Shown here in pieces: positions 14,768 through 35,799 of a stretch of 35,799 bases of DNA. The stretch comes from a virus. Where the stretch lies: the IMG/VR virus record IMGVR_UViG_3300045988_086486. One strand, given 5' to 3'. The notes below the pieces were generated by a model, which saw only the letters and a list, made by a program, of their open reading frames with translations, had not been told where the DNA came from and ran no database searches. The position numbers and the translations under genes were made by a program. Position 1 is the first letter of the stretch. The number at the start of each line of letters is the position of its first letter.

Positions 14768-14868
14768 CGCCGAATTCCGGCAACTCGTACAATGTGCGCA
14801 ATGTCAACACTTCGGGGGCATTGAACAACAACAACGCGTACAACGGCAACAGGGGCGTGCGTCCGCTT
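14768..14868 (+). repeat. DGR template repeat (TR), 101 bp with 27 adenines
   Basis: It aligns without gaps to 16801-16901 and, over 14791-14868, to 30492-30569. It reads as AAY-rich codons (NSGNSYNVRNVNTSGALNNNNAYNGNRGVRPL). Confidence 0.9.
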
Positions 14869-18715: not shown

Positions 18716-19723
18716 ATGGCAGTTATGAAAGCAAGTGAATTTGTTGCGAAACTGAAAGATGTTGCGCAGAATTACAAAACCCTTTATGTCATGGGGTGCT
18801 TTGGCGCGCCCCTGACGGGCGGCAATGTATCGCGGTATTGCAATAACCACGCATACAACAAGCAGGCCGCCCGAACGAAGATGATTAAGGCCGCCGCAAA
18901 CCAGAACCCGCCTGTTTTCGGGTTCGATTGCGTATGCCTGATTAAAGGCATTTTGTGGGGCTGGCGCGGCGACGCGTCCAAAACCTACGGCGGCGCGTCC
19001 TATGCCGTGAACGGCGTTCCGGATATTGGCGCGGATACCATGATTACAAAGTGCAAGGGCGTTTCAACCAACTTTTCCAATGTGGAGGTTGGCGAAGCCC
19101 TTTGGTGTAGCGGGCATATCGGTGTTTATATCGGCGGCGGGCTGGCCGTGGAGTGTTCCCCCGCCTTTGAAAACGATGTGCAGATCACGGCAGTTAAAAA
19201 CATGGGGACAAAGAGCGGGTATAACGCCCGCACATGGACGAAGCACGGCAAACTTCCCTATATCGAATACGACAACGCCGCCCCCGTTCAGCCGGACAAG
19301 CCGGACACCGGAGCGGGCGCAGGCGGCGCAATCAAGGCCGGAAGCGTCGTGCGTGTGAAGCAGGGCGCGAAGACCTACACGGGCGGCGGGCTGGCCTCTT
19401 TCGTGTATGAACGCGATCATGTCGTTTCGGAGCTGAACGGCGATCGCGCCGTTATCACCTACGGCGGCGTAACCGTGGCCGCCGTGCGCGTTTCCGATCT
19501 TGTTCTTGCAGATGGAAGCGGCACGGGCGGCACAATCAAGGCCGGAAGCGTCGTGCGCGTAAAGCAGGGCGCGAAGACCTACACAGGCGGCGGGCTGGCC
19601 TCTTTCGTGTATAGCCGCGATCATGTCGTTTCGGAGCTGAACGGCGATCGTGCCGTTATCACCTACGGCGGCGTGACCGTGGCCGCCGTGCGCGTTTCCG
19701 ATCTCACGCTTGTAAAGGAGTAA
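18716..19723 (+). CDS. Endolysin: NlpC/P60- or CHAP-like cysteine peptidase with two C-terminal cell-wall-binding repeats
   Basis: Cys (FDCVCLIKG) and His (GHIGVYIGG) motifs, a tandem pair of about 60-aa repeats, and location next to the holin gene. Confidence 0.8.
   Translation: MAVMKASEFVAKLKDVAQNYKTLYVMGCFGAPLTGGNVSRYCNNHAYNKQAARTKMIKAAANQNPPVFGFDCVCLIKGILWGWRGDASKTYGGASYAVNGVPDIGADTMITKCKGVSTNFSNVEVGEALWCSGHIGVYIGGGLAVECSPAFENDVQITAVKNMGTKSGYNARTWTKHGKLPYIEYDNAAPVQPDKPDTGAGAGGAIKAGSVVRVKQGAKTYTGGGLASFVYERDHVVSELNGDRAVITYGGVTVAAVRVSDLVLADGSGTGGTIKAGSVVRVKQGAKTYTGGGLASFVYSRDHVVSELNGDRAVITYGGVTVAAVRVSDLTLVKE
19322..19705 (+). repeat. Tandem near-identical 180-bp repeats (19322-19501 and 19526-19705, period 204 bp) encoding the endolysin binding modules
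   Basis: By eye, only a handful of nucleotide differences separate the two copies. Confidence 0.85.
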
Positions 19724-21598: not shown

Positions 21599-21666
21599 AG
21601 TTTGAATAACTCCTTTCGTGTGCTTAAATTATGGCAACGAGGGAAGAATACTTTTCGTATTCTGAC

Positions 21667-21701
21667 CTTTAACACAATTATGCAGGCTTTTTGTGTTAAA
21701 G
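21667..21701. promoter_or_regulatory. Perfect 11-bp inverted repeat (CTTTAACACAA N13 TTGTGTTAAAG), candidate operator
   Basis: The arms at 21667-21677 and 21691-21701 overlap the -10 and -35 of the minus-strand promoter. Confidence 0.5.
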
Positions 21702-21705
21702 TCAA
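21677..21705 (-). promoter_or_regulatory. Minus-strand promoter TTGACT-17-CATAAT for the HIRAN-like gene
   Basis: The reverse complement of 21700-21705 is TTGACT and of 21677-21682 is CATAAT, with a 17-nt spacer. Confidence 0.5.
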
Positions 21706-21753
21706 GAAAAGTGCTGATGTTTAGCACAACGAGAGGGGCGCGGGTGATCGTGG

Positions 21754-22002
21754 GTGAAGATATACGACTATAAAGGCCGGAAGAATATATGCGGCGACAG
21801 AGTGCGGGAAGCACGGCAAAAGAAGCGGTTTACACAAGAGGCGTTAGCCGCGAAACTGCAAATTGAAGGCGTGACGATGGAGCGGGACAGCCTTTCAAGA
21901 ATTGAGATCGGAACACGGTTTGTTACCGATTATGAATTGAAAGTGCTTGCTAAAGTGTTGGGCGTGTCCCCTCTTTGGTTGCTTGACGATGAAAACGAAT
22001 GA
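21754..22002 (+). CDS. XRE-family helix-turn-helix regulator (CI/Cro-like)
   Basis: 82 aa with a GTG start. It carries the classic HTH_3 pattern (RVREARQKKRFTQEALAAKLQIEGVTMERDSLSRIEIG.R). Confidence 0.8.
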   Translation: MKIYDYKGRKNICGDRVREARQKKRFTQEALAAKLQIEGVTMERDSLSRIEIGTRFVTDYELKVLAKVLGVSPLWLLDDENE

Positions 22003-22030
22003 AGCGGCGGGAATTTCCCGCCGCTTTTGC
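22002..22030 (+). terminator. Intrinsic terminator after the first XRE gene
   Basis: AAGCGGCGGGA / TCCCGCCGCTT forms an 11-bp stem with a 3-nt loop, followed by TTGCTATTTTT. Confidence 0.6.
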
Positions 22031-22060
22031 TATTTTTCGCAATTATTTTTTGAAAAGCTA

Positions 22061-22089
22061 TTGACTTTATACGGCAAATGCCGTATAAT
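22061..22089 (+). promoter_or_regulatory. Near-consensus promoter TTGACT-17-TATAAT with an embedded 22-bp palindromic operator
   Basis: -35 at 22061-22066 and -10 at 22084-22089. The palindrome TTATACGGCA-AA-TGCCGTATAA spans 22067-22088 with perfect 10-bp arms. Confidence 0.65.
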
Positions 22090-22161
22090 AAAATCACAGG
22101 CAAGGGGAAGCCGAGTAAAACGAAAGGAGAAGACAACACCACCGGAAAGGGGGTGCGAAGA

Positions 22162-22278
22162 TTGACCGAAGAGCAAATAAAAGAACTGCTTGAACTTCTT
22201 AAAAAGGCTTTGGAGAGTGAAACGGTGGAGCGTATCACAATCAGCATAAAGCCAAACAAGAAGAACAAACAGTCCTAA
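22162..22278 (+). CDS. Small hypothetical protein (about 38 aa)
   Basis: The tracked ORF's ATG at 22078 sits inside the promoter/operator, so a downstream start is more plausible (TTG 22162 or GTG 22153, after GAAAGGGGG). The predicted peptide is helical (EEQIKELLELLKKALE). Confidence 0.3.
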   Translation: MTEEQIKELLELLKKALESETVERITISIKPNKKNKQS

Positions 22279-22358
22279 CAGATACGGTGGCGGGTATCCC
22301 CGCCCGTTGCCTTTATTATAACCGATAAAACGCGAAAATGTCAAGGGAGGTTCGGCGC

Positions 22359-22628
22359 GTGGATATTAGCGTTAAAATAGCATATAGAAACGAGAAATTG
22401 CAGGCCGCGCGGCTGGCGGCTGGTATGTCACAATCACAGCTTGCGGCGGCGGCGGGAATTTCCGTGCGTATCCTGCAAGACTACGAAAGAGGCGCGCGGG
22501 ATATTAACGGGGCAAAGTTGGCGACACTATTAAAAATTTGCAACGCCCTTGAATGTAGCTTGCGGGATATTCTCACCGATCCGGCCACGCTGGAAGGGCT
22601 GGACGAATACGACAAAAGAAGGAGTTAA
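22359..22628 (+). CDS. Second XRE-family HTH regulator
   Basis: GTG at 22359 lies 8 nt after AGGGAGG (an alternative ATG is at 22338). HTH_3 pattern: LQAARLAAGMSQSQLAAAAGISVRILQDYERG.R. Confidence 0.75.
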   Translation: MDISVKIAYRNEKLQAARLAAGMSQSQLAAAAGISVRILQDYERGARDINGAKLATLLKICNALECSLRDILTDPATLEGLDEYDKRRS

Positions 22629-22638
22629 TTTCAGGCGC

Positions 22639-22666
22639 AGGGGGCGGGAAACCGCCCCTTGTTTTT
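22639..22666 (+). terminator. Intrinsic terminator (GAAA-loop hairpin plus T-run)
   Basis: GGGGCGG GAAA CCGCCCC, followed by TTGTTTTTG. Confidence 0.65.
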
Positions 22667-22686
22667 GTTTATAGGGGGCGTGGAGC

Positions 22687-23730
22687 ATGGGGCATTGTTT
22701 TAGCCATTTGACAAAGGCAGACCGTTACAAGATCGAAGCGTTATTGAATAACGGCCATTCGGCAAAGGAGATCGCCGCGGAAATTCATGTGCATATCAGC
22801 ACTATTTACCGCGAAGTAAAACGCGCCCGCATGGTTCACCGTAATTCGGATTGGACGGAGGAAGAAAGGTATAATCCGGACGAAGCACACAGGCGATACC
22901 GTGAAAACCTTTCGGCAAAAGGCGCGCCGCTGAAAATTGGCCGTGATTACGCCCTTGCGGAATATCTGGAAAGAAAAGTGCTTGAAGAAGGCCGATCCCC
23001 CGCCGCCGCACTTGCCGACATTGCTTTAGAGGGGCTGGAATTCAAAACCACAATTTGCACAAGCACCTTTTACGGCTACATAACAAAGGGTGTGTTTCTT
23101 ATGCTGACAAACAAGGATTTGCCGGAAAAGGCAAAACGAAAGCGGAAATATCGCAAAGTGAAGACGGCCAAACGCGCCCCACGCGGGAAGAGCATAGAAA
23201 AACGCCCCGCCGAAGTGGAGGGGCGCGAAGTCTTCGGACATTGGGAAATGGATACCGTTTACAGCGGGAAGCAGACTTCAAAGAAAGCCCTTCTTGTGCT
23301 GACGGAGCGGAAGACGCGACAAGAAATTATAGAGCGTATGCCGGATCGGACGGAGGAAAGCACCATAAAGGCACTTGACCGTATAGAACGGCGGTTCGGC
23401 GCGCTATTCCGCAAAGTGTTCAAAACGATCACCGTTGATAATGGCGGGGAATTCTCCAATGTGGAAAGGTTGGAACAATCCGTGATCCGAAAGGGAAAGC
23501 GGACACGCTTTTACTATTGTCACCCGTACAGCAGTTTTGAACGGGGATCAAACGAAAACCAAAATAGAATGATACGGCGGCGATACCCTAAAGGAACAGA
23601 CTTCGGGAAGGTATCAACCGCCGCAATAAAGAACCTTGAACAATGGATCAATAACTATCCGCGTGAAATATTGGGCTGGAAAACTTCTGCAATGTGCTTC
23701 CGAGAATGCCTTGACGCGCTATTAAAATAA
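22687..23730 (+). CDS. IS30-family DDE transposase
   Basis: 347 aa. It has an N-terminal HTH (AKEIAAEIHVHISTIYREVKR) and DDE-region motifs GHWEMDTV, ITVDNGGEF and ERGSNENQNRMIRR. Confidence 0.88.
   Translation: MGHCFSHLTKADRYKIEALLNNGHSAKEIAAEIHVHISTIYREVKRARMVHRNSDWTEEERYNPDEAHRRYRENLSAKGAPLKIGRDYALAEYLERKVLEEGRSPAAALADIALEGLEFKTTICTSTFYGYITKGVFLMLTNKDLPEKAKRKRKYRKVKTAKRAPRGKSIEKRPAEVEGREVFGHWEMDTVYSGKQTSKKALLVLTERKTRQEIIERMPDRTEESTIKALDRIERRFGALFRKVFKTITVDNGGEFSNVERLEQSVIRKGKRTRFYYCHPYSSFERGSNENQNRMIRRRYPKGTDFGKVSTAAIKNLEQWINNYPREILGWKTSAMCFRECLDALLK
22687..23730 (+). mobile_element. IS30-like element core (transposase ORF only; terminal inverted repeats not identified)
   Basis: I found no convincing IR pair in 22629-22686 versus 23731-23892 by eye, so the element boundaries are unresolved. 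Confidence 0.35.
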
Positions 23731-23756
23731 ATTTTCAATTTTTTTCGCATTTACTA

Positions 23757-23785
23757 TTGACATTTGCGGGTGTGGGTTGTAATAT
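23757..23785 (+). promoter_or_regulatory. Promoter-like TTGACA-17-TAATAT
   Basis: -35 at 23757-23762 and -10 at 23780-23785. Confidence 0.5.
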
Positions 23786-23786
23786 T

Positions 23787-23848
23787 AAATGCGAAAGGAA
23801 ACGAATTCCCCCGAACGGGAATTACGAACCTTCCGCATTTATTTTTTT
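23787..23848 (+). terminator. Long compound hairpin plus T7 tract (terminator or attenuator)
   Basis: The outer stem pairs AAATGCGAAAGG (23787-23798) with CCTTCCGCATTT (23829-23840). The inner stem pairs AATTCCC with GGGAATT. T7 runs 23842-23848. Confidence 0.6.
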
Positions 23849-23892
23849 ATACCACAAACCACGATAAACCGCAATAGAAACGGGGTGAAGAC

Positions 23893-24144
23893 ATGGCGGG
23901 AAATTATAGGTATCTGGATTTTGAGGATCGAAAGAAGATCGAGGCGTGGCACGCCCGCGGGGATCGCCCGCTTGAAATCGCCGCGCGACTTGGCGTGCAT
24001 ACCGCGACGATCTACCGCGAATTGCAACGAGGCTATACCGGAGAAGCGGACGCGGCGCAACGCGAGATTTACAGCGCGGAGCGGGCGCAAGCGGTGGTTC
24101 GGGAAAACTTCAAGCGCAGAGGGCGAAGAAGTGTAAACCAATAA
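23893..24144 (+). CDS. Stand-alone IS30-type N-terminal HTH protein (transposase-derived regulator or remnant)
   Basis: 83 aa. LDFEDRKKIEAWHARGDRPLEIAARLGVHTATIYRELQRG parallels the N-terminus of the upstream transposase, but it is diverged and lacks a DDE domain. Confidence 0.6.
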   Translation: MAGNYRYLDFEDRKKIEAWHARGDRPLEIAARLGVHTATIYRELQRGYTGEADAAQREIYSAERAQAVVRENFKRRGRRSVNQ

Positions 24145-24164
24145 CGACGAAAGGGTTGTTTATC

Positions 24165-24353
24165 ATGATCTATACGCTTGAAAAGCGGCACGAATTCGGC
24201 GGCGGGACAATGACAACACATTGGGAAGTTCGCAGTTATACGCATGTAACGAAGATCGGCGTGTATGCAGGCGGGAAAACCTTGAAAAGCGGAACAAAGC
24301 CGGAATGCGAAAAGTTTTGCAGGATCAAAGGAATTAAACCGGAAGTGCGATAA
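24165..24353 (+). CDS. Hypothetical protein
   Basis: ATG at 24165 lies 9 nt after GAAAGGG. 62 aa. Confidence 0.35.
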   Translation: MIYTLEKRHEFGGGTMTTHWEVRSYTHVTKIGVYAGGKTLKSGTKPECEKFCRIKGIKPEVR

Positions 24354-24372
24354 AACACGGGAGGTTTTAACG

Positions 24373-24573
24373 GTGACTAATTTTGAAAAGCTGACGCAAT
24401 CCCCCGCGGGGCTTGGGGCATTCCTTCGGGGATTGCCGATTTTAGAAGGGCCGTGGGACGACGAATTTCACAAACGGTATTGCCGGAAGTGCCCTTCTAC
24501 GGATTGCACATATTGTCCGCATGAAAAATTCCGGAATAATCCGGAATGGTGGTTAAACCTAAAAGCACGATAG
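24373..24573 (+). CDS. Hypothetical Cys-rich small protein
   Basis: 66 aa, with a GTG start after GGGAGG. It has a CxxCxxxxCxxC pattern (CRKCPSTDCTYCP). Confidence 0.45.
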   Translation: MTNFEKLTQSPAGLGAFLRGLPILEGPWDDEFHKRYCRKCPSTDCTYCPHEKFRNNPEWWLNLKAR

Positions 24574-24596
24574 GCGCGAAAGGAGCTATTCAAACT

Positions 24597-24776
24597 ATGT
24601 TGATGAAATATGCCGCGATCGTGACTTACACAGACGGGAGCAAAACAGGCGCAACCATAGAGGCACAAAGCGCGGCTAAAGCGTGGAATAAAATATTGAA
24701 TTTGTTTAATCCGGAAACCATATCAGGAATTGAGGTTGCCGCGATATTGGCAGAAGAAAGGGAGTGTAAAGCGTGA
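24597..24776 (+). CDS. Hypothetical protein
   Basis: ATG at 24597 is preceded by the conserved cassette GCGAAAGGAGCTATTCAAACT. Confidence 0.45.
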   Translation: MLMKYAAIVTYTDGSKTGATIEAQSAAKAWNKILNLFNPETISGIEVAAILAEERECKA

Positions 24777-25597
24777 ATTTAGTTTCTTTTGGCGGCGGTA
24801 CGAATAGCACCGCAATGATTATCGGCATGTATCTTCGGAAAATTCCGATTGATCTTATTATCTTCGCAGGCACAGGCGCAGAACAGCCGCACACCTACAA
24901 ATTTATAGAACAGTTCAACGCATGGTTAATAAATCACGGCTTGCCGGAGATCACAACGGTTTACACAACGGATAAAGAGGGCAACCGCCTTTTCCTTGAA
25001 GCGGAATGTTTTGAGCGCAAGACGCTTCCGGCAATCGCTTTCGGGTTTAAGACCTGTTCGCAAAAATATAAAATTCGCCCTACGGAAAAGTTTTTGAACA
25101 ATAACGCGGCATGTAAAGCGGAATGGGCGGCGGGGCGAAAAATTATAAAGTTTATCGGATACGACGCAGGCGAAACACGAAGAGTTCAACACGGCGAGGC
25201 GGCGAACGAACAAAACAAGAAAATTGAAAACCGTTACCCGCTCTATGAATGGGGGTGGGATCGCGCGGAATGCGTGCGTGTGATCCAGCGGGCAGGGCTT
25301 CCGCTTCCTGCAAAATCAAGTTGCTATTTCTGTCCTTCCATGAAGAAGAAGGAAATTCAAGCCCTTTGGGAACAATTCCCTGATCTATTTCAAAAAGCGG
25401 TAGAAATTGAGCGAAACGCCGCAGAAAATTTGAAAACGGCGAAGGGGCTTGGCCGTTCGTGGGCGTGGGGCGACTATTACGCGGAATTTATGCGGGCAAA
25501 GGAGTTTGAAGAAGCGCAAATTTCCTTCGATCAATTATTTCCGGAAACAAAGGGCGGTTGCTTATGTGGTGCGCCGTGTGGTTGCTATGACGGATAA
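24773..25597 (+). CDS. PAPS-reductase-like PP-loop (adenine nucleotide alpha-hydrolase) protein with a C-terminal Cys cluster
   Basis: It has an SFGGGTNS PP-loop near the N-terminus, CYFCP, and a terminal CLCGAPCGC. 274 aa. Confidence 0.7.
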   Translation: MNLVSFGGGTNSTAMIIGMYLRKIPIDLIIFAGTGAEQPHTYKFIEQFNAWLINHGLPEITTVYTTDKEGNRLFLEAECFERKTLPAIAFGFKTCSQKYKIRPTEKFLNNNAACKAEWAAGRKIIKFIGYDAGETRRVQHGEAANEQNKKIENRYPLYEWGWDRAECVRVIQRAGLPLPAKSSCYFCPSMKKKEIQALWEQFPDLFQKAVEIERNAAENLKTAKGLGRSWAWGDYYAEFMRAKEFEEAQISFDQLFPETKGGCLCGAPCGCYDG

Positions 25598-26231
25598 ACA
25601 GACTATGAGCCGCAGACGCAAGCCGCGCCGCCGTTCGCCCCTTCCCTTCCTGCTTCTGGCCGTGGCGGTTGTCGGGTGCGCCTTCGCCGTAGCGGTTGCG
25701 GCAGTGGTTCCGATGGAGGCCGACAGCCCCGGCGGGCAGGATCAAGCGTTCCCCGCGCCTACGCTTGAAGAGGCCGAGCGGGACAAGCTGGACGCACCCG
25801 CGGCGGCAACGCCGACACATACGCCCGCCCCATACATACCGGACGAAGCGGAAGTTGAAATGCTGGCGCGCCTGATATGGGGCGAAGCCCGCGGCATTCC
25901 TTCGGATATGCACAAAGCGGCGGTTGTGTGGTGCGTCCTGAACCGCGTTGACGCGGAAGGCTGGCCGGACACCGTGGCCGAAGTAGTAACACAGCCGCAC
26001 CAATTCGCCGGATATTCGCCGGACTATCCGGCAACAGAGGAATTCAAGGCGATTGCCGCCGATGTGCTGATACGGTGGGAGCGGGAAAAACGGGAAGGCG
26101 GCGAGGTTGGCCGCGTCCTTCCCGCTGAATATGTCTTCTTCACGGGTGATGGAGAAGTAAACCATTTCCGGACGGAATACGAAGGCGGCATGTTTTGGGA
26201 TTGGAGCTTGAAAAATCCATACAGCAGTTAA
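25587..26231 (+). CDS. Cell-wall hydrolase (SleB / Hydrolase_2-like) with an N-terminal signal anchor
   Basis: ATG at 25587. It has a TM helix (LPFLLLAVAVVGCAFAVAVAAVV), then EMLARLIWGEARG..AVVWCVLNRV...QPHQF, which is typical of SleB-like domains. Confidence 0.7.
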   Translation: MTDKQTMSRRRKPRRRSPLPFLLLAVAVVGCAFAVAVAAVVPMEADSPGGQDQAFPAPTLEEAERDKLDAPAAATPTHTPAPYIPDEAEVEMLARLIWGEARGIPSDMHKAAVVWCVLNRVDAEGWPDTVAEVVTQPHQFAGYSPDYPATEEFKAIAADVLIRWEREKREGGEVGRVLPAEYVFFTGDGEVNHFRTEYEGGMFWDWSLKNPYSS

Positions 26232-26252
26232 GCGAAAGGAGCTATTCAAACT

Positions 26253-26573
26253 ATGTCGAAGCAGAAGCAGGACAAGCGGGGCGGCGGCTGGCAGTTCCCC
26301 CGCCCGATCGAAATTATCAAGTGCAAAGAGGGCAACAAAGAATACATGAAGGAACGCCCCGCACGCAAGCCTTACGGAAGGATCGTCAAGGTGTGCGAAT
26401 TCAGCCTTGAAGCCGTCGCAGAGTTTGGCGACGACGACGCGCGGACGGTGTGGAGGCTGGCAAAGCGGGCGGCGCGCGACTTCTTGCGGGTATCGTGGAT
26501 CAATACGGCCATTGTAACCGCCGCGAAAACCGATCGCCCTTATATGGCCGTGATTGTTTACGGCAAATATTAA
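26253..26573 (+). CDS. Hypothetical protein
   Basis: 106 aa. The ATG is preceded by the conserved cassette GCGAAAGGAGCTATTCAAACT. Confidence 0.5.
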   Translation: MSKQKQDKRGGGWQFPRPIEIIKCKEGNKEYMKERPARKPYGRIVKVCEFSLEAVAEFGDDDARTVWRLAKRAARDFLRVSWINTAIVTAAKTDRPYMAVIVYGKY

Positions 26574-26586
26574 GGGGGCGGCGGGA

Positions 26587-26931
26587 ATGTCAAACAAAGC
26601 GGAGCTTTTGAAGAAAATAAAAGCTCTTGCCGATCGGGGCGTTGACGGAGAGCGCGAGAGCGCACAAACCCTTCTTGCCCGCCTGATGGAGCAATACGGG
26701 ATCAGCGAAACCGAGATTGAAGAGGAACGCCGCGAAACAGCATGGTTCCCTTACAGTCAAGAAACCGAACGGCGGTTGTTGAACCAGATCATTTATATGG
26801 TGACAGGTGCGGGCGGCTTCGGGTGCGTTGGCGAATATAGCGGGCGCAAGCGAAAAAGATGGGGACGGAATGCACCGCCGCGGAACGGTTGGAAATCGAA
26901 GCGAATTACGCCTTTTTCAAAGAGGCAATGA
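26587..26931 (+). CDS. DUF2786-like protein, N-terminal part (frame changes near an A5 run at 26853-26857)
   Basis: ATG at 26587. KKIKALADRG..ERESAQTLLARLMEQYGI matches the DUF2786-like helical motif. The last ~24 aa are basic and low-complexity, suggesting an out-of-frame tail. Confidence 0.5.
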   Translation: MSNKAELLKKIKALADRGVDGERESAQTLLARLMEQYGISETEIEEERRETAWFPYSQETERRLLNQIIYMVTGAGGFGCVGEYSGRKRKRWGRNAPPRNGWKSKRITPFSKRQ

Positions 26932-27128
26932 AGAAAGAGCTTGAAATATTTTATTCAGCATTCGCAAGCAAAAACAATCTTTTCCCGCCCGCCGACAAAG
27001 TGAAGCCGCGAAGCATTGAAGAGCTTTCGCCGGAAGAAAAATCCTACTATGCGAAAGTGGGGTTGATGGCCGAAGGCATGGAGCGGCACACATTACGCAA
27101 GGCCATTGCCGCGGGCGAAACCGAGTAA
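26859..27128 (+). CDS. Hypothetical protein, or the C-terminal part of the split DUF2786-like gene
   Basis: This ORF is in the -1 frame relative to 26587. That frame opens only 6 codons before the ATG at 26859. The sequence looks protein-like (ERLEIEANYAFFKEAMKKELEIFY). Confidence 0.5.
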   Translation: MGTECTAAERLEIEANYAFFKEAMKKELEIFYSAFASKNNLFPPADKVKPRSIEELSPEEKSYYAKVGLMAEGMERHTLRKAIAAGETE

Positions 27129-27141
27129 AGGAGGATCACAC

Positions 27142-27438
27142 ATGCAAAGAGCTATTCAAAACACACAGGCGGCCACGCGCCGCCGTTCCCGCCCTCTTCG
27201 GGTAGCGGGAAGCACATTGACGGCGAATGTTGCCTTTACCGTCCTGAAATACGCCGCCCTTACCGCGGCGGGCGTTCTTCTCTTCCGTTGGGGGCAGGGG
27301 TACGCCCTTGCCGAACGCGGATACGAGGCGATCGGCGGTGAAGCGTTGCTTTTAGGGTTGCCGCTGTTCTGGTATCTGACGGAAACCACGATCCGCGATA
27401 CCGTGCGGGACTTCCGGAAGGGAGGCCGCCGCAAATGA
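27142..27438 (+). CDS. Hypothetical membrane protein
   Basis: ATG at 27142 lies after AAAGGAGG. Two hydrophobic helices are present. Confidence 0.45.
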   Translation: MQRAIQNTQAATRRRSRPLRVAGSTLTANVAFTVLKYAALTAAGVLLFRWGQGYALAERGYEAIGGEALLLGLPLFWYLTETTIRDTVRDFRKGGRRK

Positions 27439-28097
27439 AGATAAAGAGCATTGCCGCGATATGCAAGAAAAACAAACAGGTTGTTTTATTCAACCGATAC
27501 AGCGATAGCGGCACAATATCGCAGTACATAGGCGACGGAAACGCGGTTTACCCTATTTCCGGCCTTCCGGAGCTGGACGAAGAAAGCATTTTAACGATCT
27601 TCGATGTGCCGGAGAAACAGCGCGAAGACTGGCTTGTGCGGTATCGTGACATTCCGGAGGGGATCAGCTTCGAGGACACCGACGCAACCGAAAAGATCAT
27701 TGAACAAGGCAACCTTTCGATTGTGTATAGCGGAAAGACCTTGAAGCCCTTGCAGACACGCCGCGGGCTGGTTTTCATCGAAAGCCGCTATTTGTCGCCC
27801 GTTTCAGATGTGCTTGATGTGTTGGAGCTTTACGAGCGGGTAACGCCTTTCGGTGCGCCGTATATCGTGGCAAAAGCGGGCTTTCTGCTTCAAGCGGTAA
27901 TTATGCCGTGTGATGTTATAAGCGCGCAATTCGTCCAACGCCTGCAAGAGCTGACACGGCAATGCGCCGTTTCTCTTGACCTTCGGGAACAGGAGCGGGA
28001 GCGGCAGGCCGCCGCAGAGAGCGCGGGGCAATTCAAGGTTGATCCGGAAACGGGGGCAATCATTGAACCGGAAAGCGAGGCGGGCGACGATGATTAG
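27435..28097 (+). CDS. Hypothetical protein (acidic C-terminus)
   Basis: 220 aa. The start overlaps the preceding stop (ATGA). I recognised no motif. Confidence 0.55.
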   Translation: MKIKSIAAICKKNKQVVLFNRYSDSGTISQYIGDGNAVYPISGLPELDEESILTIFDVPEKQREDWLVRYRDIPEGISFEDTDATEKIIEQGNLSIVYSGKTLKPLQTRRGLVFIESRYLSPVSDVLDVLELYERVTPFGAPYIVAKAGFLLQAVIMPCDVISAQFVQRLQELTRQCAVSLDLREQERERQAAAESAGQFKVDPETGAIIEPESEAGDDD

Positions 28098-28380
28098 GAC
28101 GCAGAGGCATTCCCGCTTTGTGCTGATGTCGCTTGATGAAATCCGCGCCACGCGGGACATTGTATTGCAGACGGAGGAAACGAAAAGCAATTTTTCCGGA
28201 TCGGGCAAAACGGTTTATATTTGCGAAGTTGTGCGCCCTTGCGATTATCAAAAGGAAACGGACACCGCCGCGGACAAGCTGGCCGCAGAGATCGAGCGGG
28301 TAAACGCCGACAACCGCGCCTTGCGCCGGAAGGTTGAACGCCTTGAACGAGAATTACAGAAAGCGAGGGCGGGCGCATGA
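28090..28380 (+). CDS. Hypothetical protein with a C-terminal coiled coil
   Basis: The ATG at 28090 overlaps the preceding gene's end. The C-terminus is AEIERVNADNRALRRKVERLERELQKA. Confidence 0.45.
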   Translation: MIRTQRHSRFVLMSLDEIRATRDIVLQTEETKSNFSGSGKTVYICEVVRPCDYQKETDTAADKLAAEIERVNADNRALRRKVERLERELQKARAGA

Positions 28381-28832
28381 ACAAGGCTTTGTTATCCTCT
28401 AAAAATATGTGCTGGTGTACGCCGCAAGACTTCTTCGACAAGCTGAACGAAGAATTTTCCTTCACGCTGGACGCGGCGGCCACAGACAAAACGGCAAAAT
28501 GCCCGCTATATTTCACGCCGGAAACGGACGGGCTTAAATCCTCTTGGAAGGTTGCGGGGGGGGGTACAGTATTTTGCAATCCCCCGTATGGGCGCGAAAT
28601 CGGCAAGTGGGTTCAAAAGGCATACGAAGAGGCGCAGGCCGGAACGCCGATTGTTCTTCTTATTCCAGCGCGTACCGATACAAGCTATTTCCACGATTTT
28701 ATATACCACAAAGCGGAAATTCGCTTTATTCGTGGGCGGCTTCGGTTTACGGACGACGACGGCAACGCCGCCGATCCCGCGCCCTTCCCCTCTATGCTGG
28801 TGATTTATAACGGAAAGGCGGTGAAATCGTGA
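28377..28832 (+). CDS. Phage DNA N6-adenine methyltransferase (Dam-type)
   Basis: 151 aa. W.TPQDFFD.L..EF.F.LDAAA is followed by the catalytic NPPY motif. Confidence 0.85.
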   Translation: MNKALLSSKNMCWCTPQDFFDKLNEEFSFTLDAAATDKTAKCPLYFTPETDGLKSSWKVAGGGTVFCNPPYGREIGKWVQKAYEEAQAGTPIVLLIPARTDTSYFHDFIYHKAEIRFIRGRLRFTDDDGNAADPAPFPSMLVIYNGKAVKS

Positions 28833-28996
28833 AATACAAGGTTTGCGATCGGCGCGGAAGTCACCTTGACTATGGCGAAACATGCGAATGCGTGAAAGAG
28901 GCCGAACAGGAAGAGAGGGTGCGCAATGCTGAAAATCAGAAGGATCAAAACAGACAAGTTCAAAACCGCGGCGTTTTGGATCGAAAAGCGGGATAA
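28829..28996 (+). CDS. Small Cys-containing protein (VKYKVCDRRGSHLDYGETCEC...)
   Basis: 55 aa. The GTG overlaps the methyltransferase stop (GTGA). This N-terminal C..(C/R)G..LD.GE.C.C pattern recurs in Firmicute phages. It is below the ORF-track length cutoff. Confidence 0.4.
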   Translation: MKYKVCDRRGSHLDYGETCECVKEAEQEERVRNAENQKDQNRQVQNRGVLDRKAG

Positions 28997-29128
28997 CGAA
29001 TACATAGCGTGCCGAACGCTTGTAAATGCCCTTTTGGGTATTGCTTCCACTTCTATTATGAGCAGAGGGCAAGAGGCGTTGAAAAAGGCGTATGAAACGC
29101 GCCGAATTTGAAAGGAGCAGTTCAGACG

Positions 29129-29512
29129 ATGGAAAAACAGGGATTGAACGAGCTTGCCGCGGCGGTACATGAAAATGCCGTTGCGCATGGCTGGTGGGAG
29201 CAGGAACGGGAATTGCCCGAAATCCTTATGCTTTGCGTTTCGGAGCTTGCGGAGGCTTTGGAAGAGTACCGCGCCGGAAAGCCGAACATTTATTACAATG
29301 TCGAAGGCGAAGAAATACTTTATGCGGACGGGGAGGCGTGCGAAAAGCACGAGCGGCGCAAGCCGGAAGGCGTGGCGGTGGAATTGGCCGATTGCATGAT
29401 CCGCATTCTGGACTATTGCGGGCACGCCGGAATTGATATTGAAGAGGCAATACGGATCAAGCACGAATACAACAAAACCCGCCCATATCGTCACGGCGGG
29501 AAGAAATGTTGA
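29129..29512 (+). CDS. MazG-like nucleotide pyrophosphohydrolase
   Basis: ATG at 29129 lies after GAAAGGAG. Motifs: HGWW...SELAEALEEYR...ELADCMIRILDY...K..YN..RPYRHGGK. Confidence 0.75.
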   Translation: MEKQGLNELAAAVHENAVAHGWWEQERELPEILMLCVSELAEALEEYRAGKPNIYYNVEGEEILYADGEACEKHERRKPEGVAVELADCMIRILDYCGHAGIDIEEAIRIKHEYNKTRPYRHGGKKC

Positions 29513-29886
29513 CCGCGGGAGCGGGGCGGCTGGTATCGCCCTTTGCAAATGATCCGTTCGCGTTGGTTGCACTGGCCTTCAAGAACCTTTACCCCGAACG
29601 GGAATACGCGGCCTATTTTGCGCCGGAGGTAGAAGACGGAAGCGGCGGCGCGGCTTGCGGGGTGACAACCTTTCCGGAAGACGGATCGCCGCCCGTTGTG
29701 GAGGTATCCGGAGAAATCCCCATTGCGGCAGGCGTTGAAATATTCGCGCACGAATTGGCGCATGTCGCCACGCCGGAAGATCGGGAGCATGGCGAAGCGT
29801 GGAAGGCCGCCTTTGACCGGATTTTTGAGGAATACAACCGGATCGCGCAAGACCTTTTCGGGGAAGGCGGCGAAGAACCATGCTGA
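29506..29886 (+). CDS. Small HExxH-motif protein (putative metallopeptidase-like)
   Basis: 126 aa containing FAHELAHV. The stop overlaps ATG 29880 of the next ORF. Confidence 0.45.
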   Translation: MLTAGAGRLVSPFANDPFALVALAFKNLYPEREYAAYFAPEVEDGSGGAACGVTTFPEDGSPPVVEVSGEIPIAAGVEIFAHELAHVATPEDREHGEAWKAAFDRIFEEYNRIAQDLFGEGGEEPC

Positions 29887-30038
29887 ACGAGCGGGAGCAG
29901 GCCGCACACGATCCCACGATTGCAGAAACGGCGCAGGGGCTTTCCCTTGCGTTTGAAAAATTGAAAGCCGATATATCACAATCACGCGCCGCCCGCTTTG
30001 TGTTGGCGGTGCTGGAAAAATTGAAAGGAGCTATTCAA

Positions 30039-30956
30039 ATGGAAAAGACTTTGAAAACCGGAAAGATCGGACAGTTTGGTGCAGAAAGCCGCGTTACATA
30101 CGGCGGTGTGAAGTGGGTTGTGCTGGACGCACGCCCGAATATGTCGCTTTGTCTTGCGGAAGATGTGTTGAAGGACGAAAACGGCGAAGTTCGGTACATG
30201 GCTTTCGACACGGACAATAAGAACGATTTTGCCGCCTCTTCCGTCCGCGCTTTCCTGAACGGTGATTTTCTGGAAGAGCTGGCCGCCGCGGGTGCGGACA
30301 AAGAAGCGTTTGTGCCGATCGTCCTTGACCTGACTTCCGACGACGGTTTAGACGATTACGGCACGGACAGCGCAAAGATCGGGCTTATCACGGATCAGAT
30401 GTACCGCGCATTCCACAAAATCATTCCGAAAGCGTCGGAAGACTATTGGACTTGTACCCCGTTTTCAACCGAGCGGAACGGCTATAAAAGTTTTGTGCGC
30501 CATGTCGGCGCTTCGGGGGCGTTGCTCAACAGCGACGCGTACATCGGCCGCGGGGGCGTGCGTCCGCTTTGCGCTCTGAAATCTGATATTTTGGTATCTT
30601 ATGACGAAGGAGAAGTGAACGAGCGCAAGCCGTCGTTCGGTGAAATGATCGGGAAAGCCCTTGCGGAAGGGCTGAACAAGGCCATTTTTGGGGAAGACGA
30701 AGAGCCGAAGGGCATTCTTGCCGAAGCGGAGGCGCAGGCCGCCCGCGAAAAGGAGCAGGAAGACGAAGACCAGAAACGCGCGGACGCGGTGGACATGATG
30801 AAGCACATTGCCGCCGCCTTCGATATTCCGGCCACAATCGGAGAAGGCAAACAGGAAGAGCAGGAAAAAGAAGCAAAACAGCTTTTCGGCTGGTATTCGG
30901 AGCTGAAAAAGGCCGGATTTACCGACGCGCAGGCGTTCGAGCTTATCAAGGGATAA
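30039..30956 (+). CDS. DGR target protein 2 (DUF6273-like variable domain plus acidic helical C-terminal tail)
   Basis: ATG at 30039 is preceded by the conserved cassette GAAAGGAGCTATTCAA. An in-frame alternative start at 29880 overlaps the upstream stop. The gene contains VR2, and its domain end (SGAL..A..G..GVRPLC.LKSDILVS) is shared with target 1. Confidence 0.8.
   Translation: MEKTLKTGKIGQFGAESRVTYGGVKWVVLDARPNMSLCLAEDVLKDENGEVRYMAFDTDNKNDFAASSVRAFLNGDFLEELAAAGADKEAFVPIVLDLTSDDGLDDYGTDSAKIGLITDQMYRAFHKIIPKASEDYWTCTPFSTERNGYKSFVRHVGASGALLNSDAYIGRGGVRPLCALKSDILVSYDEGEVNERKPSFGEMIGKALAEGLNKAIFGEDEEPKGILAEAEAQAAREKEQEDEDQKRADAVDMMKHIAAAFDIPATIGEGKQEEQEKEAKQLFGWYSELKKAGFTDAQAFELIKG
30492..30569 (+). 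repeat. DGR variable repeat 2 (VR2)
   Basis: 78 bp align without gaps to TR 14791-14868. By hand alignment there are 15 mismatches, all at TR adenines, and all non-A positions are identical. Confidence 0.88.
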
Positions 30957-30962
30957 CAGAAA

Positions 30963-30989
30963 AGGCCGCCCCGCACGATGGGGCGGCCT
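30963..30989. terminator. GC-rich hairpin after target 2
   Basis: AGGCCGCCCC / GGGGCGGCCT forms a 10-bp stem with a 7-nt loop. There is no T-run on the + strand, so function is uncertain. Confidence 0.35.
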
Positions 30990-31028
30990 ATCCCCTATAC
31001 ATTATATATAAGAAAGGACGGGTTCAAA

Positions 31029-31172
31029 ATGACGGCATTTGAATTTATGGTTGCCGCCTTTTATGCGCTTGTCGGCGTGGTTTGCCTTTCCGTGGCGGTT
31101 GTGATCGTGTATGCCGTTGTGGTAGGCATTTATAGAGGATTGAAAGGCGGTGGACACCGTGGCAGAAAATAA
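31029..31172 (+). CDS. Small single-pass membrane protein
   Basis: 47 aa with a hydrophobic core (FMVAAFYALVGVVCLSVAVVIVYAVVVGI) and a basic tail. Confidence 0.35.
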   Translation: MTAFEFMVAAFYALVGVVCLSVAVVIVYAVVVGIYRGLKGGGHRGRK

Positions 31173-31569
31173 AACCTTCAACGAAGAAGCCCTTGTTGAA
31201 ATGGCGCACACGATGGGTTTTGACCTTGCGCACGCGTGCGCGGCGGCGGCTGACGCATTCGCCCGCGGCGTGGCCGATGGCTTCGCCGCCTATGCGCAAG
31301 AGCTGGCCGCCGAAAACGGCGGCGTTGAGCTGGTACACGATGGAGAAGACGAAGAACCGGAGTTGAAAACGGATATTCAGGATTGCCGCCGTTGCTGGTG
31401 CGATACATGCGGCAAGTTGGAAGAGTGCAAAAAGCACCGCGACGGCACACAGCCGGACGGCTTGCGCCCGCTTCCGTGTATCGGGTGCGTGAACGGCCTT
31501 CGGTTCAAGCCGAAGGAAGAAGAGCCTTGCGAAGAGTACACGGAGGCCGCGGGCTTTAATAACGGATAG
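31150..31569 (+). CDS. Hypothetical protein with a Cys-rich C-terminus
   Basis: About 139 aa with a GTG start. It has an acidic middle, then CRRCWCDTCGK..C....CIGC. Confidence 0.45.
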   Translation: MDTVAENKTFNEEALVEMAHTMGFDLAHACAAAADAFARGVADGFAAYAQELAAENGGVELVHDGEDEEPELKTDIQDCRRCWCDTCGKLEECKKHRDGTQPDGLRPLPCIGCVNGLRFKPKEEEPCEEYTEAAGFNNG

Positions 31570-31577
31570 AAAAGAAG

Positions 31578-31608
31578 AAGGCGGCTTGCGTTGCCTGCAA
31601 GCCGCCTT
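31578..31608 (+). terminator. Hairpin after 31150..31569
   Basis: AAGGCGGCTTGC / GCAAGCCGCCTT forms a 12-bp stem with a 7-nt loop. The T-run is weak (TTTC). Confidence 0.45.
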
Positions 31609-32007
31609 TCCCCCTTCGCGTCGCCGCGAAAAGAGCTATTCAAACTAACGACAGTATAACACCGCGGCGGCAGAATGTCAAGAAACGCCGGAACACGGCG
31701 TATTACGGGCTTGTAATGGGTATTAACACATGGACGGAAAAGCAGAATTCCGGAAGTGCTGGTTTGTATTCAATTCCCCGTCGCCTGCTTTATCAGGATC
31801 ACGGAGGCGGCAAGCTGTCAAGGGTGCGACAGCACCGCGAAAGCGGCTTGCCCTTGATGGGTTGTTGCCGGAGTGATAGAAGCAGGAAAGGCGGCGGGGA
31901 TAAATGCAAACCTTCCGGCCTTGCGTGTTCAATTCCTTTGAGCCTGCTTCCCCCTTTAGGGGGACGGGAGGGGGTGAAACCTTTACCACGAGCAGGGAGG
32001 AAACAAC

Positions 32008-32922
32008 ATGCCGTACAACAGCGCAAAATATGAATTCCTCTTTGACCTTTCCGGAGAGAACACCGAAAGGGCGTTTGATCGGTTCCGGCACAGGAATGTT
32101 TTTCGTTATCGTACCCGCACGATCAAGGCGGGAAATGTGCTTGAAGTTGAGATATTCCCGATATGGAACACGCAAAACGAGGTTCGAGAGGCAAAGAAGC
32201 ACACAACACGGGAAGCACAAAAGAACCTGAATGACAAAAACGCAAAAAAGAAGTTCATTCGGAAGATCAATGCGAATTTCACGGAAGAAGACCTTTGCGT
32301 AACGCTGACATATTCAAACGGCTTTGTTCCGGACGAAGAGCAGGCGCGCCGCGATATTCGGAATTACCTTCGCAGGGTGCGGGAGTATCGCCGGAAGAAT
32401 GGCCTTCCAGAATTGAAATACGCCTATGTGATCGAGTTCGGCGGGAAAGATGGGCGGCGCAAGCGTGTTCACCACCATGTCATTATGTCCGGCATGGATC
32501 GGGACAAAGCCGAAGCCCTTTGGAATGGCCGCGGGTATGCAAACGCCCGCCGCCTGCAACCGGACGATTACGGATTAGAAGCCCTTGCGCGCTATATGAC
32601 GAAGGAGCCGAACGGCGGCAAACGGTGGGCGGCAAGCAAAAACCTTGTTGATCCGAAAATCACGGAGGCCGACACTAAAATAAGCCGCCGCAAGGTGGAG
32701 CAGATGGCCGAAGACTTCGAGGCGAAACCCGCCGCGATCTTCGCTGCGCTTTTCCCTGAATACAGCTTCAACGAATGCGCCGTGCGGTATTCGGATTTTG
32801 TGGCAGGCGCGTACATATACGCAAAATTACACCGGAAGGCCGCGCCGCCGCAGAAGCAGAAAAAGAAACGGAGGGTACGCAATGAACACAACGGAAATGA
32901 TGGTAATTTGCCGCGAAGTTGA
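32008..32922 (+). CDS. HUH-superfamily rolling-circle replication initiator (Rep)
   Basis: Motif 1-like CVTLTY, HUH motif RVHHHVIM, and Tyr motif ALARYMTKE. 304 aa with a basic C-terminus. Confidence 0.7.
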   Translation: MPYNSAKYEFLFDLSGENTERAFDRFRHRNVFRYRTRTIKAGNVLEVEIFPIWNTQNEVREAKKHTTREAQKNLNDKNAKKKFIRKINANFTEEDLCVTLTYSNGFVPDEEQARRDIRNYLRRVREYRRKNGLPELKYAYVIEFGGKDGRRKRVHHHVIMSGMDRDKAEALWNGRGYANARRLQPDDYGLEALARYMTKEPNGGKRWAASKNLVDPKITEADTKISRRKVEQMAEDFEAKPAAIFAALFPEYSFNECAVRYSDFVAGAYIYAKLHRKAAPPQKQKKKRRVRNEHNGNDGNLPRS

Positions 32923-35700: not shown

Positions 35701-35799
35701 CGGGTGTACACGTGGGGGGTGTGGTTGACGGCACAGAAAGGGGGCGTTTTTTGTGGCGACAAAGAAGGAGCTTACGAAAGAACAGAAGATCAAAAAAGA
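35701..35799. repeat. Second copy of the 99-bp terminal repeat
   Basis: Identical to 1-99. Confidence 0.95.

Follow-up and report, generated by a model that had tools for sequence, protein, structure and literature searches.

The window, that is, the whole stretch of phage DNA analysed here (35,799 nt), carries a single diversity-generating retroelement (DGR). Its accessory protein Avd is encoded at 14309–14713 on the plus strand and matched phrog_3206 "Avd protein of DGR" (1.2e-27); the Pfam match of Avd to bAvd (4.4e-7) was under the gathering score. The TR is located at 14768–14868 (+) and contains 27 adenines. It has its counterpart over 101/101 nt in VR1 and, for its 3′ 78 nt (14791–14868), in VR2. 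The DGR reverse transcriptase (RT) is encoded at 15040–16002 (+), with matches to Pfam RVT_1 (1.1e-14) and phrog_1423 (3.5e-127). Target 1 (T1) is located at 16128–17861 (+) and is of the tentaclin type, comprising an N-terminal DUF6273 domain followed by Ig-like domains. Its Pfam matches were DUF6273 (7.1e-36) and, weakly, Big_9 and Big_13, and it matched phrog_10993 over the full length (2.9e-196). VR1 is located in T1 at 16801–16901 (+), offset from the TR by +2033, and its mismatches are confined to TR adenines.

The second gene, target 2 (T2), is located at 30039–30956 (+). It encodes 305 aa, with a DUF6273-type domain of about 190 aa followed by an acidic helical tail of 115 aa. The first-pass annotation had placed this gene among early and DNA-metabolism genes, behind a ribosome-binding cassette shared with them, and the gene context and the cassette were confirmed. 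Pfam and PHROGs searches identified Dam (28377–28832), a MazG-like pyrophosphatase (29129–29512), a SprT-like HExxH protein (29506–29886, weak match) and Rep (32008–32922). The cassette GAAAGGAGCTATTCAAA is present in 8 copies against 0.09 expected, all of them between 21.6 and 31.7 kb and only at genes of the non-structural block. The 17-nt cassette of T2 (30023–30039, +) ends at its ATG. A sigma-70-like promoter candidate (23757–23785, +; TTGACA-17-TAATAT, 10/12, a consensus match only) heads the gene block whose last gene is T2. Directly 3′ of the T2 stop, the transcription unit ends at a G+C-rich hairpin (30963–30989). Its score in the terminator scan was obtained for the minus strand (10 pairs, 9 of them G-C), and no T-run follows it on the plus strand. 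The minus-strand ORFs at 31.0–31.6 kb and 21.9–22.3 kb had zero family matches. PADLOC, applied to T2 and its neighbours, matched only a PAPS-reductase-like protein to SspD and gave no match for T2.

The start at 30039 was the only T2 start common to all relatives. Upstream of it, an in-frame extension of 53 codons (29880–30038, +) is absent from homologues at 55–68% identity, and it is probably not part of the conserved T2 protein. The ATG at 29880 was ruled out as the conserved start: distant homologues begin with MEK, and the equivalent region of the related genome L009 is unrelated sequence with in-frame stops. At this position, phage nd12 (OR777946.1; Baykov et al. 2023) has a full DUF3310 domain (2.7e-17). 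The extension in the window may be a truncated DUF3310 remnant, as judged by visual comparison because the window and nd12 extensions aligned poorly. The T2 neighbourhood recurs in nd12, nd4 (OR777945.1; Baykov et al. 2023), Toutatis and two further lineages at 55–57% identity.

VR2 is located at 30492–30569 (+) and encodes residues 152–177 of T2. The exact alignment of this segment with TR 14791–14868 is ungapped, with 78 columns, 22 TR adenines and 15 mismatches. The divergence proved to be restricted to adenines, as the first-pass annotation had stated: 15/15 mismatches fall on TR-A and 56/56 non-A bases are identical (hypergeometric P = 3.9e-11 for the mismatches). The alignment thus contains none of the non-A mismatches that the annotation had named as evidence against its claim. 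An independent repeat search of the window joined the TR, VR1 (16826–16940) and VR2 (30494–30608) in one three-copy family and counted a single TR family. VR1 and VR2 are read in a common frame, in which the TR adenines lie at codon positions 1 and 2 (AAY codons); 26 of the 27 occupy position 1 or 2 in both frames, and the exception occupies position 3. The distance of 13.7 kb originally reported is correct for the spacing of VR1 and VR2 (13,668 nt) and incorrect for that of VR2 and the RT. VR2 is offset by 15,701 nt from the TR, and the RT stop is 14.0 kb from the T2 start.

The G+C-rich 3′ segment GGGGCGTGCGTCCGCTT is common to the TR, VR1 and VR2, and beyond it the TR and the VRs diverge. 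The sequence that follows VR2 (30570–30601, +) is shared with VR1 and missing from the TR. The two VR flanks have an identical run of 23 nt, TGAAATCTGATATTTTGGTATCT, and the motifs AAATCT and TTGGTATC were invariant, synonymous sites included, in 6/6 genes (window, nd12, L035 and L037). This flank is a candidate target-recognition (IMH-like) element. A conserved stable stem, as in the G+C-rich hairpin/cruciform of BPP-1, was not found 3′ of the VRs: the VR2 flank had z = −0.02, the nd12 flanks had z > 0, and the VR flanks contained inverted repeats of 6–7 nt only. A downstream hairpin or cruciform is not universal among DGRs.

The first-pass annotation had proposed that VR2 should vary at A sites and vary wherever VR1 does, and this was borne out among related assembled genomes, that is, at the level of lineages and not of reads from one population. 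Among 14 IMG/VR relatives, 21/22 TR-A columns of VR2 vary against 1/56 non-A columns (P = 9e-17). At the one A column that stays constant, the TR of the relatives has G. VR1 was variable at A sites in 9 genomes of the same set. The mean fraction of A sites changed was 0.48 in VR2 and 0.51 in VR1, and changes to C were the rarest substitution class in both. In four relatives (L004, L008, L010 and L011), the TR-derived tract of VR2 reaches further 5′, to about 30473, and the junctions differ, a sign of separate retrohoming events. Clustered at 90% identity, T2 belongs to a group of 7293 distinct sequences. The exact T2 sequence was found on 1 contig, and those of the MazG-like protein, the SprT-like protein, Dam, Rep and Avd were found on at least 1000 contigs each.

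These data bear on whether VR2 is still rewritten. The likeness to the TR could be a relic of shared DUF6273 ancestry or of a single old conversion, with rewriting since ceased. One site fits this reading: A14820 is private to the TR of this genome (G in the TR of 10/10 relatives), and VR1 has A there and VR2 has G, so VR2 may not have been rewritten since the TR changed. In cultures of phage Lelie, moreover, reads showed no variation at the VRs (PMC11792537). At the lineage level, the relic reading is contradicted by the A-column variation and the junction data: VR2 differs in nearly every related genome with changes only in A columns, several distinct 5′ junctions occur and the cluster is large. 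Against it, too, all non-A bases are identical with the TR, and BLASTP aligns nothing else of T1 and T2; we consider it very improbable. The chance that VR2 arose by assembly, through reads mis-joined across the repeat, is negligible. Chimeric public contigs do exist; L021 joins the 5′ part of T2 to the TR and RT, P0079 combines the T2 N-domain with a tentaclin C-terminus, and P0078 combines T2 with TerL. Against an artefact, the intact T2 gene with its own flanks is present in 13 independent IMG/VR contigs and thousands of cluster members, the gene occurs in nd12 and other published genomes, and a 99-nt terminal repeat closes the window on itself. VR2 is thus very probably a genuine, currently active second target of the single DGR of this prophage.

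The T2 protein matched phrog_9958 (6.9e-48) and Pfam DUF6273 (8.5e-8, C-terminal part of the model only), the latter being its sole Pfam match. As noted in the first pass, it shares the end of its variable domain with T1: residues 136–187 of T2 and 221–268 of T1 are 56% identical (BLASTP, E 6e-14), and no BLASTP alignment was obtained beyond that end. Pfam and PHROGs likewise gave zero Ig or FN3 matches for T2; the tentaclin of the window is T1, not T2. Secondary structure prediction, at low confidence, gave a beta-rich region (residues 1–190) followed by five helices. The long acidic helical tail described earlier was recovered as 115 aa with a net charge of −11, its helices resting on the same low-confidence prediction, and it contains the highly conserved motif RAxAVDMMKHIAAAFDIPATI. 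A word-indexed search with the tail returned just fragments of T2 itself. A full HMMER scan of 1.84 billion representatives gave 12 matches, all of the T2 family, and no other domain architecture with this tail. The T2 sequence, read by eye, has neither a signal peptide nor a membrane segment. An 8-residue patch is all that the tail has in common with the capsid protein of the phage; it is a curiosity and was not taken as evidence of capsid association.

AlphaFold2 was run on full T2 with 28 aligned sequences and on the N-domain with 57. Both models were poor, with a mean pLDDT of about 63 and values below 50 in the VR half. Foldseek searches with these poor models found nothing in the PDB at E ≤ 0.001 and marginal matches in BFVD, including a DUF6273 protein at E 2e-2. 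A PDB profile search with the T2 family alignment matched only IgA protease 9qa6, marginally (E 1.3e-3). Mtd was not matched to T2 in this profile search or in either Foldseek run with the poor models. A search with the family profile gave no more distant relatives among the 120 sequences listed. Since our own models were poor, a C-type-lectin-like fold of T2 is suggested by the partial Pfam DUF6273 match and by published models; the DUF6273 domain of nd12 target2 has been reported as C-type-lectin-like (PMC10743442).

We propose that the RT, aided by Avd, copies the TR transcript into cDNA with misincorporation opposite template adenines. This cDNA would replace two homologous tracts, VR1 in the RT-adjacent tentaclin gene and VR2 in trans at the remote locus. 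The VR-specific flank, missing from the TR, may mark both loci as acceptors, and the 5′ junction of VR2 would be resolved by short homology at a position that is not fixed. T2 is the counterpart of nd12 target2, with a single DUF6273 domain, the VR near the C-terminal end of this domain, and the family-specific acidic helical tail after it. Such a protein may act as a binding module of variable specificity.

Where T2 acts can be read in different ways. The literature proposes an adhesin or receptor binder, released or attached to the virion, and published authors favour a receptor-binding role for the small DUF6273 target; we give this role for T2 close to an even chance. A role outside the virion is a tentative possibility. 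The early timing and non-virion binding suggested in the first pass were read from gene position, and in the form then proposed, T2 would be a hypervariable intracellular binder made with early or accessory genes for counter-defence, host takeover or superinfection exclusion. This form is rather unlikely, and its evidence is mainly one of gene neighbourhood. In all lineages examined, the T2 homologue is a gene of the non-structural block. The order in the window is Dam, MazG-like, SprT-like, T2 and Rep, and nd12 target2 is likewise placed; the nd4 homologue adjoins genes for DNA polymerase III, SSB and DnaC, and that of Toutatis has methyltransferases on one side and Rep on the other and precedes antiterminator Q. 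In L035 and L037, Dam, MT-A70 and a Lar restriction-alleviation gene are directly upstream. The slot just 5′ of T2 is a hotspot of gene replacement: depending on the genome, it is filled by SprT-like, by Lar, by a protein of 184 aa or by a Cys-rich peptide. Downstream of T2 comes a transcriptional regulator, followed by HNH and terS, that presumably controls late genes. An intracellular binder is further consistent with the ribosome-binding cassette common only to genes of the T2 block, with a T2 that has no Ig anchor domain and a tail without homologues outside the family, and with the cytoplasmic DGR-diversified C-lec sensors known in cellular DGRs (PMC10907252). Against it, all function-tested phage DGR targets are virion surface proteins, the same TR serves the clear adhesin T1, and T2 has zero PADLOC matches. 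The case for it consists of position and the ribosome-binding cassette. The T2 block also holds a cell-wall hydrolase domain and is therefore not purely one of DNA metabolism.

A more specific proposal is that T2 is no virion protein, is made together with the early, anti-restriction and replication genes, and serves as a phage "antibody" against variable host defence or competitor-phage proteins, with the conserved tail motif coupling the bound target to a constant partner. Its placement in five divergent lineages beside methyltransferases, Lar, SprT-like and Rep genes would then reflect function and not accident; we hold this proposal to be unlikely. It is improbable that T2 is expressed from the prophage as a lysogenic-conversion factor or as a sensor for defence or exclusion, with selection acting on the lysogen and not in infection. 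The phage is temperate: proteins of the neighbouring genes were found on bacterial contigs of up to 3.3–3.7 Mb, with source names including Agathobaculum, Intestinimonas and Flavonifractor, and L035 contains a prophage–host junction. The promoter candidate at the head of the block is of a near-consensus sigma-70 type, and a related tentaclin has been reported to be expressed and diversified in lysogeny (bioRxiv 10.64898/2026.05.08.723808). Expression in the lysogen is opposed by the multi-gene block with replication-type genes, which would normally be repressed in a lysogen, by a T2 sequence that by eye has neither signal peptide nor membrane segment, and by the PADLOC result.

T2 as a virion adhesin would be an ordinary second receptor binder with an unusual gene location; T2 as a protein acting outside the virion would extend phage DGR biology beyond host recognition. 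The functional question is why several phage genera have a hypervariable binding protein among the core genes of their non-structural block. The present lineage is a well-documented addition to the small set of phage DGRs that act on a remote second gene, and its carrier is a prophage that is very abundant in gut bacteria of the Oscillospiraceae type, with neighbouring genes on at least 1000 contigs. It provides natural evidence of two loci rewritten about equally from one cDNA source with variable 5′ junctions, and it draws attention to a sequence 3′ of the VR as a candidate acceptor signal. Remote DGR targets are under-counted, because the largest DGR survey is by design blind to them (PMC8144416).

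The first pass had implied that a remote second target is rare or new, which did not stand, as the design of one TR with two targets has already been published for related gut phages. In nd4 and nd12, a single TR serves a tentaclin and a remote small DUF6273 protein (Baykov 2023, PMC10743442), and the same arrangement is known in Lelie and CP11 (PMC11792537). In Toutatisvirus, 17,480 nt separate the TR from the second VR, and the gene with this VR, the small DUF6273 target, is a core gene found in 98.8% of Toutatisvirus genomes (bioRxiv 10.1101/2024.10.15.618418). Baykov et al. (2023) named the arrangement a "cassette" without discussing the non-structural location (PMC10743442).

The closest known systems are nd12 and nd4. 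Like the window, both use one TR for two genes, an RT-adjacent tentaclin and a small DUF6273-only protein with flanking helices, and the tail motif AVDMMKHIAAA(F/W)DI is common to their target2 and T2. By tblastn, T2 was 39.5% identical to target2 of nd12 (2e-39) and 38.6% to that of nd4 (5e-33). In both, as in the window, VR2 is shorter than VR1 at the 5′ end, and the VR codes for the end of the domain; VR2 of nd12 is offset by +14,100 from the TR. Synteny with nd12 covers terL through TMP, Avd-TR-RT-tentaclin, the lysis genes, an IS30-like transposase and target2. The two phages differ in that target2 is only 39.5% and the RT 74% identical and the TR sequence is not the same. The N-terminal fusion of nd12 target2 is a full DUF3310, whereas the window has the 53-codon extension only, and the tail is longer in the window than in nd12 and nd4.

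The Faecalibacterium phages Lelie, Toutatis and CP11 also have their second VR in a small DUF6273 protein distant from the TR. In Toutatis, this small DGR target lies among methyltransferase and Rep genes, and in CP11, A-site variation was reported at both VRs (PMC11792537). They differ from the window in that their targets have about 31% identity to T2, in the domain only, and do not have the conserved tail motif; they are of other phage genera with larger genomes (53–55 kb). The archetypal phage DGR target, Mtd of BPP-1, resembles the present system in the adenine-specific transfer from TR to VR, in a related RT (34% identity to Brt) and, according to the literature, in a VR at the C-terminal end of a C-lec-type domain. 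Mtd, however, is a single cassette-adjacent target at a trimeric tail-fibre tip and has an N-terminal beta-prism and beta-sandwich, which T2 does not have. The T2 gene belongs to a non-structural block and is 15.7 kb away from the TR. The cellular DGRs of Treponema denticola, cyanobacteria and multicellular bacteria likewise combine one TR with distant VRs in trans (PMC4891356, PMC7517822, PMC10907252), and certain of their targets are the cytoplasmic C-lec sensor proteins mentioned above. They are chromosomal elements with unlike target architectures, whereas the DGR described here is carried by a phage of 35.7 kb.

The window comprised a phage genome of approximately 35.7 kb that is complete and closes into a circle, and a repeat search showed bases 1–99 recurring at 35701–35799. 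The diversity-generating retroelement (DGR) genes Avd (14309–14713) and reverse transcriptase (RT, 15040–16002) flanked the template repeat (TR). They were followed by target 1 (T1, 16128–17861), a tentaclin-type gene with DUF6273 and Ig-like domains that matched phrog_10993 over its full length. The remote target 2 (T2, 30039–30956, 305 aa) matched phrog_9958 (6.9e-48) and the C-terminal part of the Pfam DUF6273 model (8.5e-8). Exact ungapped alignment of the TR (14791–14868) with the variable repeat of T2 (VR2, 30492–30569) covered 78 columns with 22 TR adenines. All 15 mismatches fell on TR adenines and 56/56 non-A bases were identical (P = 3.9e-11, hypergeometric), as the first-pass annotation had counted from the sequence. 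The variable repeat of T1 (VR1, 16801–16901) paired with a longer TR stretch (14768–14868), again with A-only mismatches, and an independent repeat search placed TR, VR1 and VR2 in a single family of three copies. Both targets read the repeat in the same frame, and in each the TR adenines stood at the first or second codon position, apart from one at the third. VR2 was offset by 15,701 nt from the TR, and the T2 start lay 14.0 kb from the RT stop; the 13.7 kb previously given as the distance from the RT is the VR1–VR2 spacing.

Sequence variation among relatives indicated that VR2 is an active remote target. In an in-register alignment of 14 IMG/VR contigs encoding the T2 protein at 87–98% identity, 21 of 22 VR2 columns at TR adenines were variable, many with three or four alleles, against 1 of 56 non-A columns (P = 9e-17), so the A-restricted heterogeneity that the first-pass annotation had proposed looking for was found in public assemblies. 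Outside the VR, 86/814 columns were variable, nearly all biallelic and four triallelic. The fraction of A sites changed was 0.48 in VR2 and 0.51 in VR1, and substitutions to C were the rarest class at both. In four relatives (L004, L008, L010 and L011), TR-derived sequence reached further 5′ in VR2, displacing T2's own codons. Their 5′ junctions lay at differing points, which implies that these tracts arose in separate events of retrohoming, resolved variably at the 5′ end. At 90% identity, the cluster containing T2 held 7293 distinct sequences. The window's T2 sequence occurred in exact form on 1 contig, and its MazG-like, SprT-like, Dam, Rep and Avd sequences each did so on at least 1000.

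The sole invariant VR2 A column was TR 14820, where the TR of the relatives has G (10/10). The window TR carries a private G-to-A change at this codon-position-3 site; its counterpart is A in VR1 (16853) and G in VR2 (30521), as in VR2 of 13/13 relatives. The private base acts as a natural marker: VR1 was rewritten after it arose in the TR, and VR2 may not have been rewritten since. Since VR1 copied the private A and VR2 still has G, this is weak evidence that rewriting in this genome was more recent at VR1 than at VR2. Joins across the repeats were also seen: in contig L021 (1–300) the T2 5′ flank runs into unmutated TR and then RT, in protein P0079 the T2 N-domain is joined at the VR to tentaclin Ig domains, and in P0078 T2 is joined to TerL. 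Chimeric assembly across repeats probably accounts for these joins, or they may reflect real VR/TR recombination.

The G+C-rich end GGGGCGTGCGTCCGCTT was common to TR, VR1 and VR2, and TR and VR sequences diverged immediately after it. The VR1 and VR2 flanks were identical over 23 nt. Six genes were compared: both targets of the window, both targets of the published gut phage nd12, and T2 of the related contigs L035 and L037. These are only 39–57% identical as proteins; the AAA TCT and TTG GTA TC codons were invariant at synonymous sites, and adjacent codons drifted. By analogy with the IMH of BPP-1, the VR 3′ flank may be a nucleotide-level acceptor element. No conserved hairpin followed this candidate element.

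The conserved T2 start was the ATG at 30039, directly behind a 17-nt cassette GAAAGGAGCTATTCAAA. A longer ORF from 29880 was rejected as the conserved form: MEK is the N-terminus in homologues at 55–68% identity, and the stretch contains in-frame stops in one close relative. The 53-codon in-frame extension (29880–30038) looks by eye like a truncated DUF3310 remnant, although it aligned poorly with the extension of nd12, in which a complete DUF3310 (2.7e-17) is fused to target2. The slot immediately before T2 differed in content between close relatives. In P0009, P0014, P0020 and P0128, the extension stretch is entered in frame by read-through from differing upstream genes, and region 31285–31536 of contig L034 was noted together with it.

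T2 had no Ig domain, and its 115-residue tail had a net charge of −11 and was helical by low-confidence prediction. BLASTP aligned T1 and T2 only over the 52 C-terminal residues of the domain (56% identity). The earlier description of a protein without Ig modules, with an acidic tail and sharing the end of its variable domain with T1, was upheld. A lectin-like fold was not confirmed by two structure predictions, both weak, and Foldseek with these models gave no significant match. Among 1.84 billion representative proteins scanned, no relatives of the tail were found outside the T2 family, and a PADLOC scan gave no T2 match. The tail motif RAxAVDMMKHIAAAFDIPATI (30747–30830, residues ~237–264) hardly differed between the window and nd12 target2, at an overall identity of 39.5%. 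Because it is almost unchanged, the motif suggests a conserved partner and resembles a docking peptide. The tail patch NKAIFGEDEEPKGILAE (30690–30740) resembles QAIVSGTGSGQPKGILTE in the major capsid protein of this phage (4520–4580), and 16 nucleotides are identical. The variants P0029 and P0031 have AIVSGTGSGQPKGIL here, exactly as in the capsid, and this patch scores above the Pfam Phage_capsid threshold. Short-patch recombination between the T2 and capsid genes may lie behind it.

PHROG and Pfam scans gave the gene order terS, terL, portal, protease, capsid; tape measure, Dit, minor tail genes; Avd-TR-RT-T1; endolysin, holin; and a Cro/CI-type HTH gene with an IS30-like transposase. Next comes a block, with a sigma-70-like promoter at its head (23757), that encodes PAPS-reductase/SspD-like, cell-wall hydrolase domain, Dam, MazG-like and SprT-like proteins and T2, followed by a G+C-rich hairpin (30963–30989). 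Small ORFs, Rep, VRR-NUC, a transcriptional regulator and HNH precede terS again. The scans bore out the annotated neighbourhood of Dam, MazG-like, HExxH (SprT-like) and Rep genes, and from its position T2 would be early. The ribosome-binding cassette noted earlier as common to T2 and other early genes occurred in 8 copies against 0.09 expected, confined to the non-structural third (21.6–31.7 kb). The sites were 21601 (minus strand), 24578, 26234, 27144, 29110, 30023, 31012 and 31628 (range 21601–31644). The copies could act as a common signal for translational control or RNA processing.

Gene order around target2 in nd12 was as in the window. The T2 homologue adjoins DNA polymerase III, SSB and DnaC genes in nd4, another gut phage. 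In the Faecalibacterium phage Toutatis it has methyltransferases on one side and Rep on the other, and antiterminator Q lies downstream of it. In two lineages at 55–57% identity it follows Dam and precedes Rep, and in one of them MT-A70 and a Lar restriction-alleviation gene also lie ahead of it.

The PAPS-reductase-like protein (24773–25597) matched the PADLOC model SspD (1.8e-22), which suggests a DNA-modification or anti-restriction function within the block that also holds Dam and T2. On the minus strand of 30963–31700, a near-consensus promoter (31681–31653, 11/12 matches, with TG) is followed by terminator-like hairpins at 31608–31578 and 30989–30963. No recognisable protein lies between these hairpins, so the unit could specify a short RNA, antisense or regulatory, that runs convergent to T2. 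The IS30-like DDE transposase (22687–23730; HTH_38 and rve; phrog_4646, 2e-137) occupies the expected place of an integrase, as in nd12. It may serve as one, because the phage was found as a prophage in multi-megabase contigs. The endolysin gene (18716–19723) contains two tandem 185-nt copies (19316–19704, 94% identity), probably duplicated cell-wall-binding repeats, and the tape-measure gene contains multiple degenerate 33–44-nt direct repeats (CCGCAGATCAT...) at 9300–10750.

The functional hypothesis for T2 is the only part of the case with high potential interest. Phage DGR targets are as a rule virion surface proteins. This rule favours T2 as a virion-attached or released adhesin, to which we give slightly less than an even chance, as its consistent non-structural placement and the shared cassette argue against it. 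The same placement and the cassette common to the block speak for a non-virion role during infection, which goes against the rule and which we consider rather unlikely. A role expressed in the lysogen appears improbable.

Two-target DGRs have been described previously. Phages nd4 and nd12 have one TR each and two diversified genes: "tentaclin", with an N-terminal C-lec-like DUF6273 and Ig domains, and "target2", a small DUF6273-only protein with flanking helices, whose VR2 is shorter (Baykov et al. 2023, PMC10743442). In the Faecalibacterium prophages Lelie and CP11, the DUF6273 targets are of a large and a small type, and both VRs of CP11 vary at A sites (2024, PMC11792537). In Toutatisvirus, a core gene (98.8% of genomes) carries the second VR, at a distance of 17,480 nt from the TR, and genomes without the DGR still have both targets (2024 preprint, 10.1101/2024.10.15.618418). 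Remote targets were undetectable in the survey of Roux et al. 2021 (PMC8144416). The authors of these DGR papers suggest a receptor-binding role, and the non-structural location of the second target is undiscussed in them. Phage nd12 is syntenic with the window (RT 74% and target2 39.5% identical), and we located its TR, with VR1 at +1987, VR2 at +14,100 and A-only mismatches. The arrangement in the window therefore belongs to the already published two-target kind and is not a new kind.
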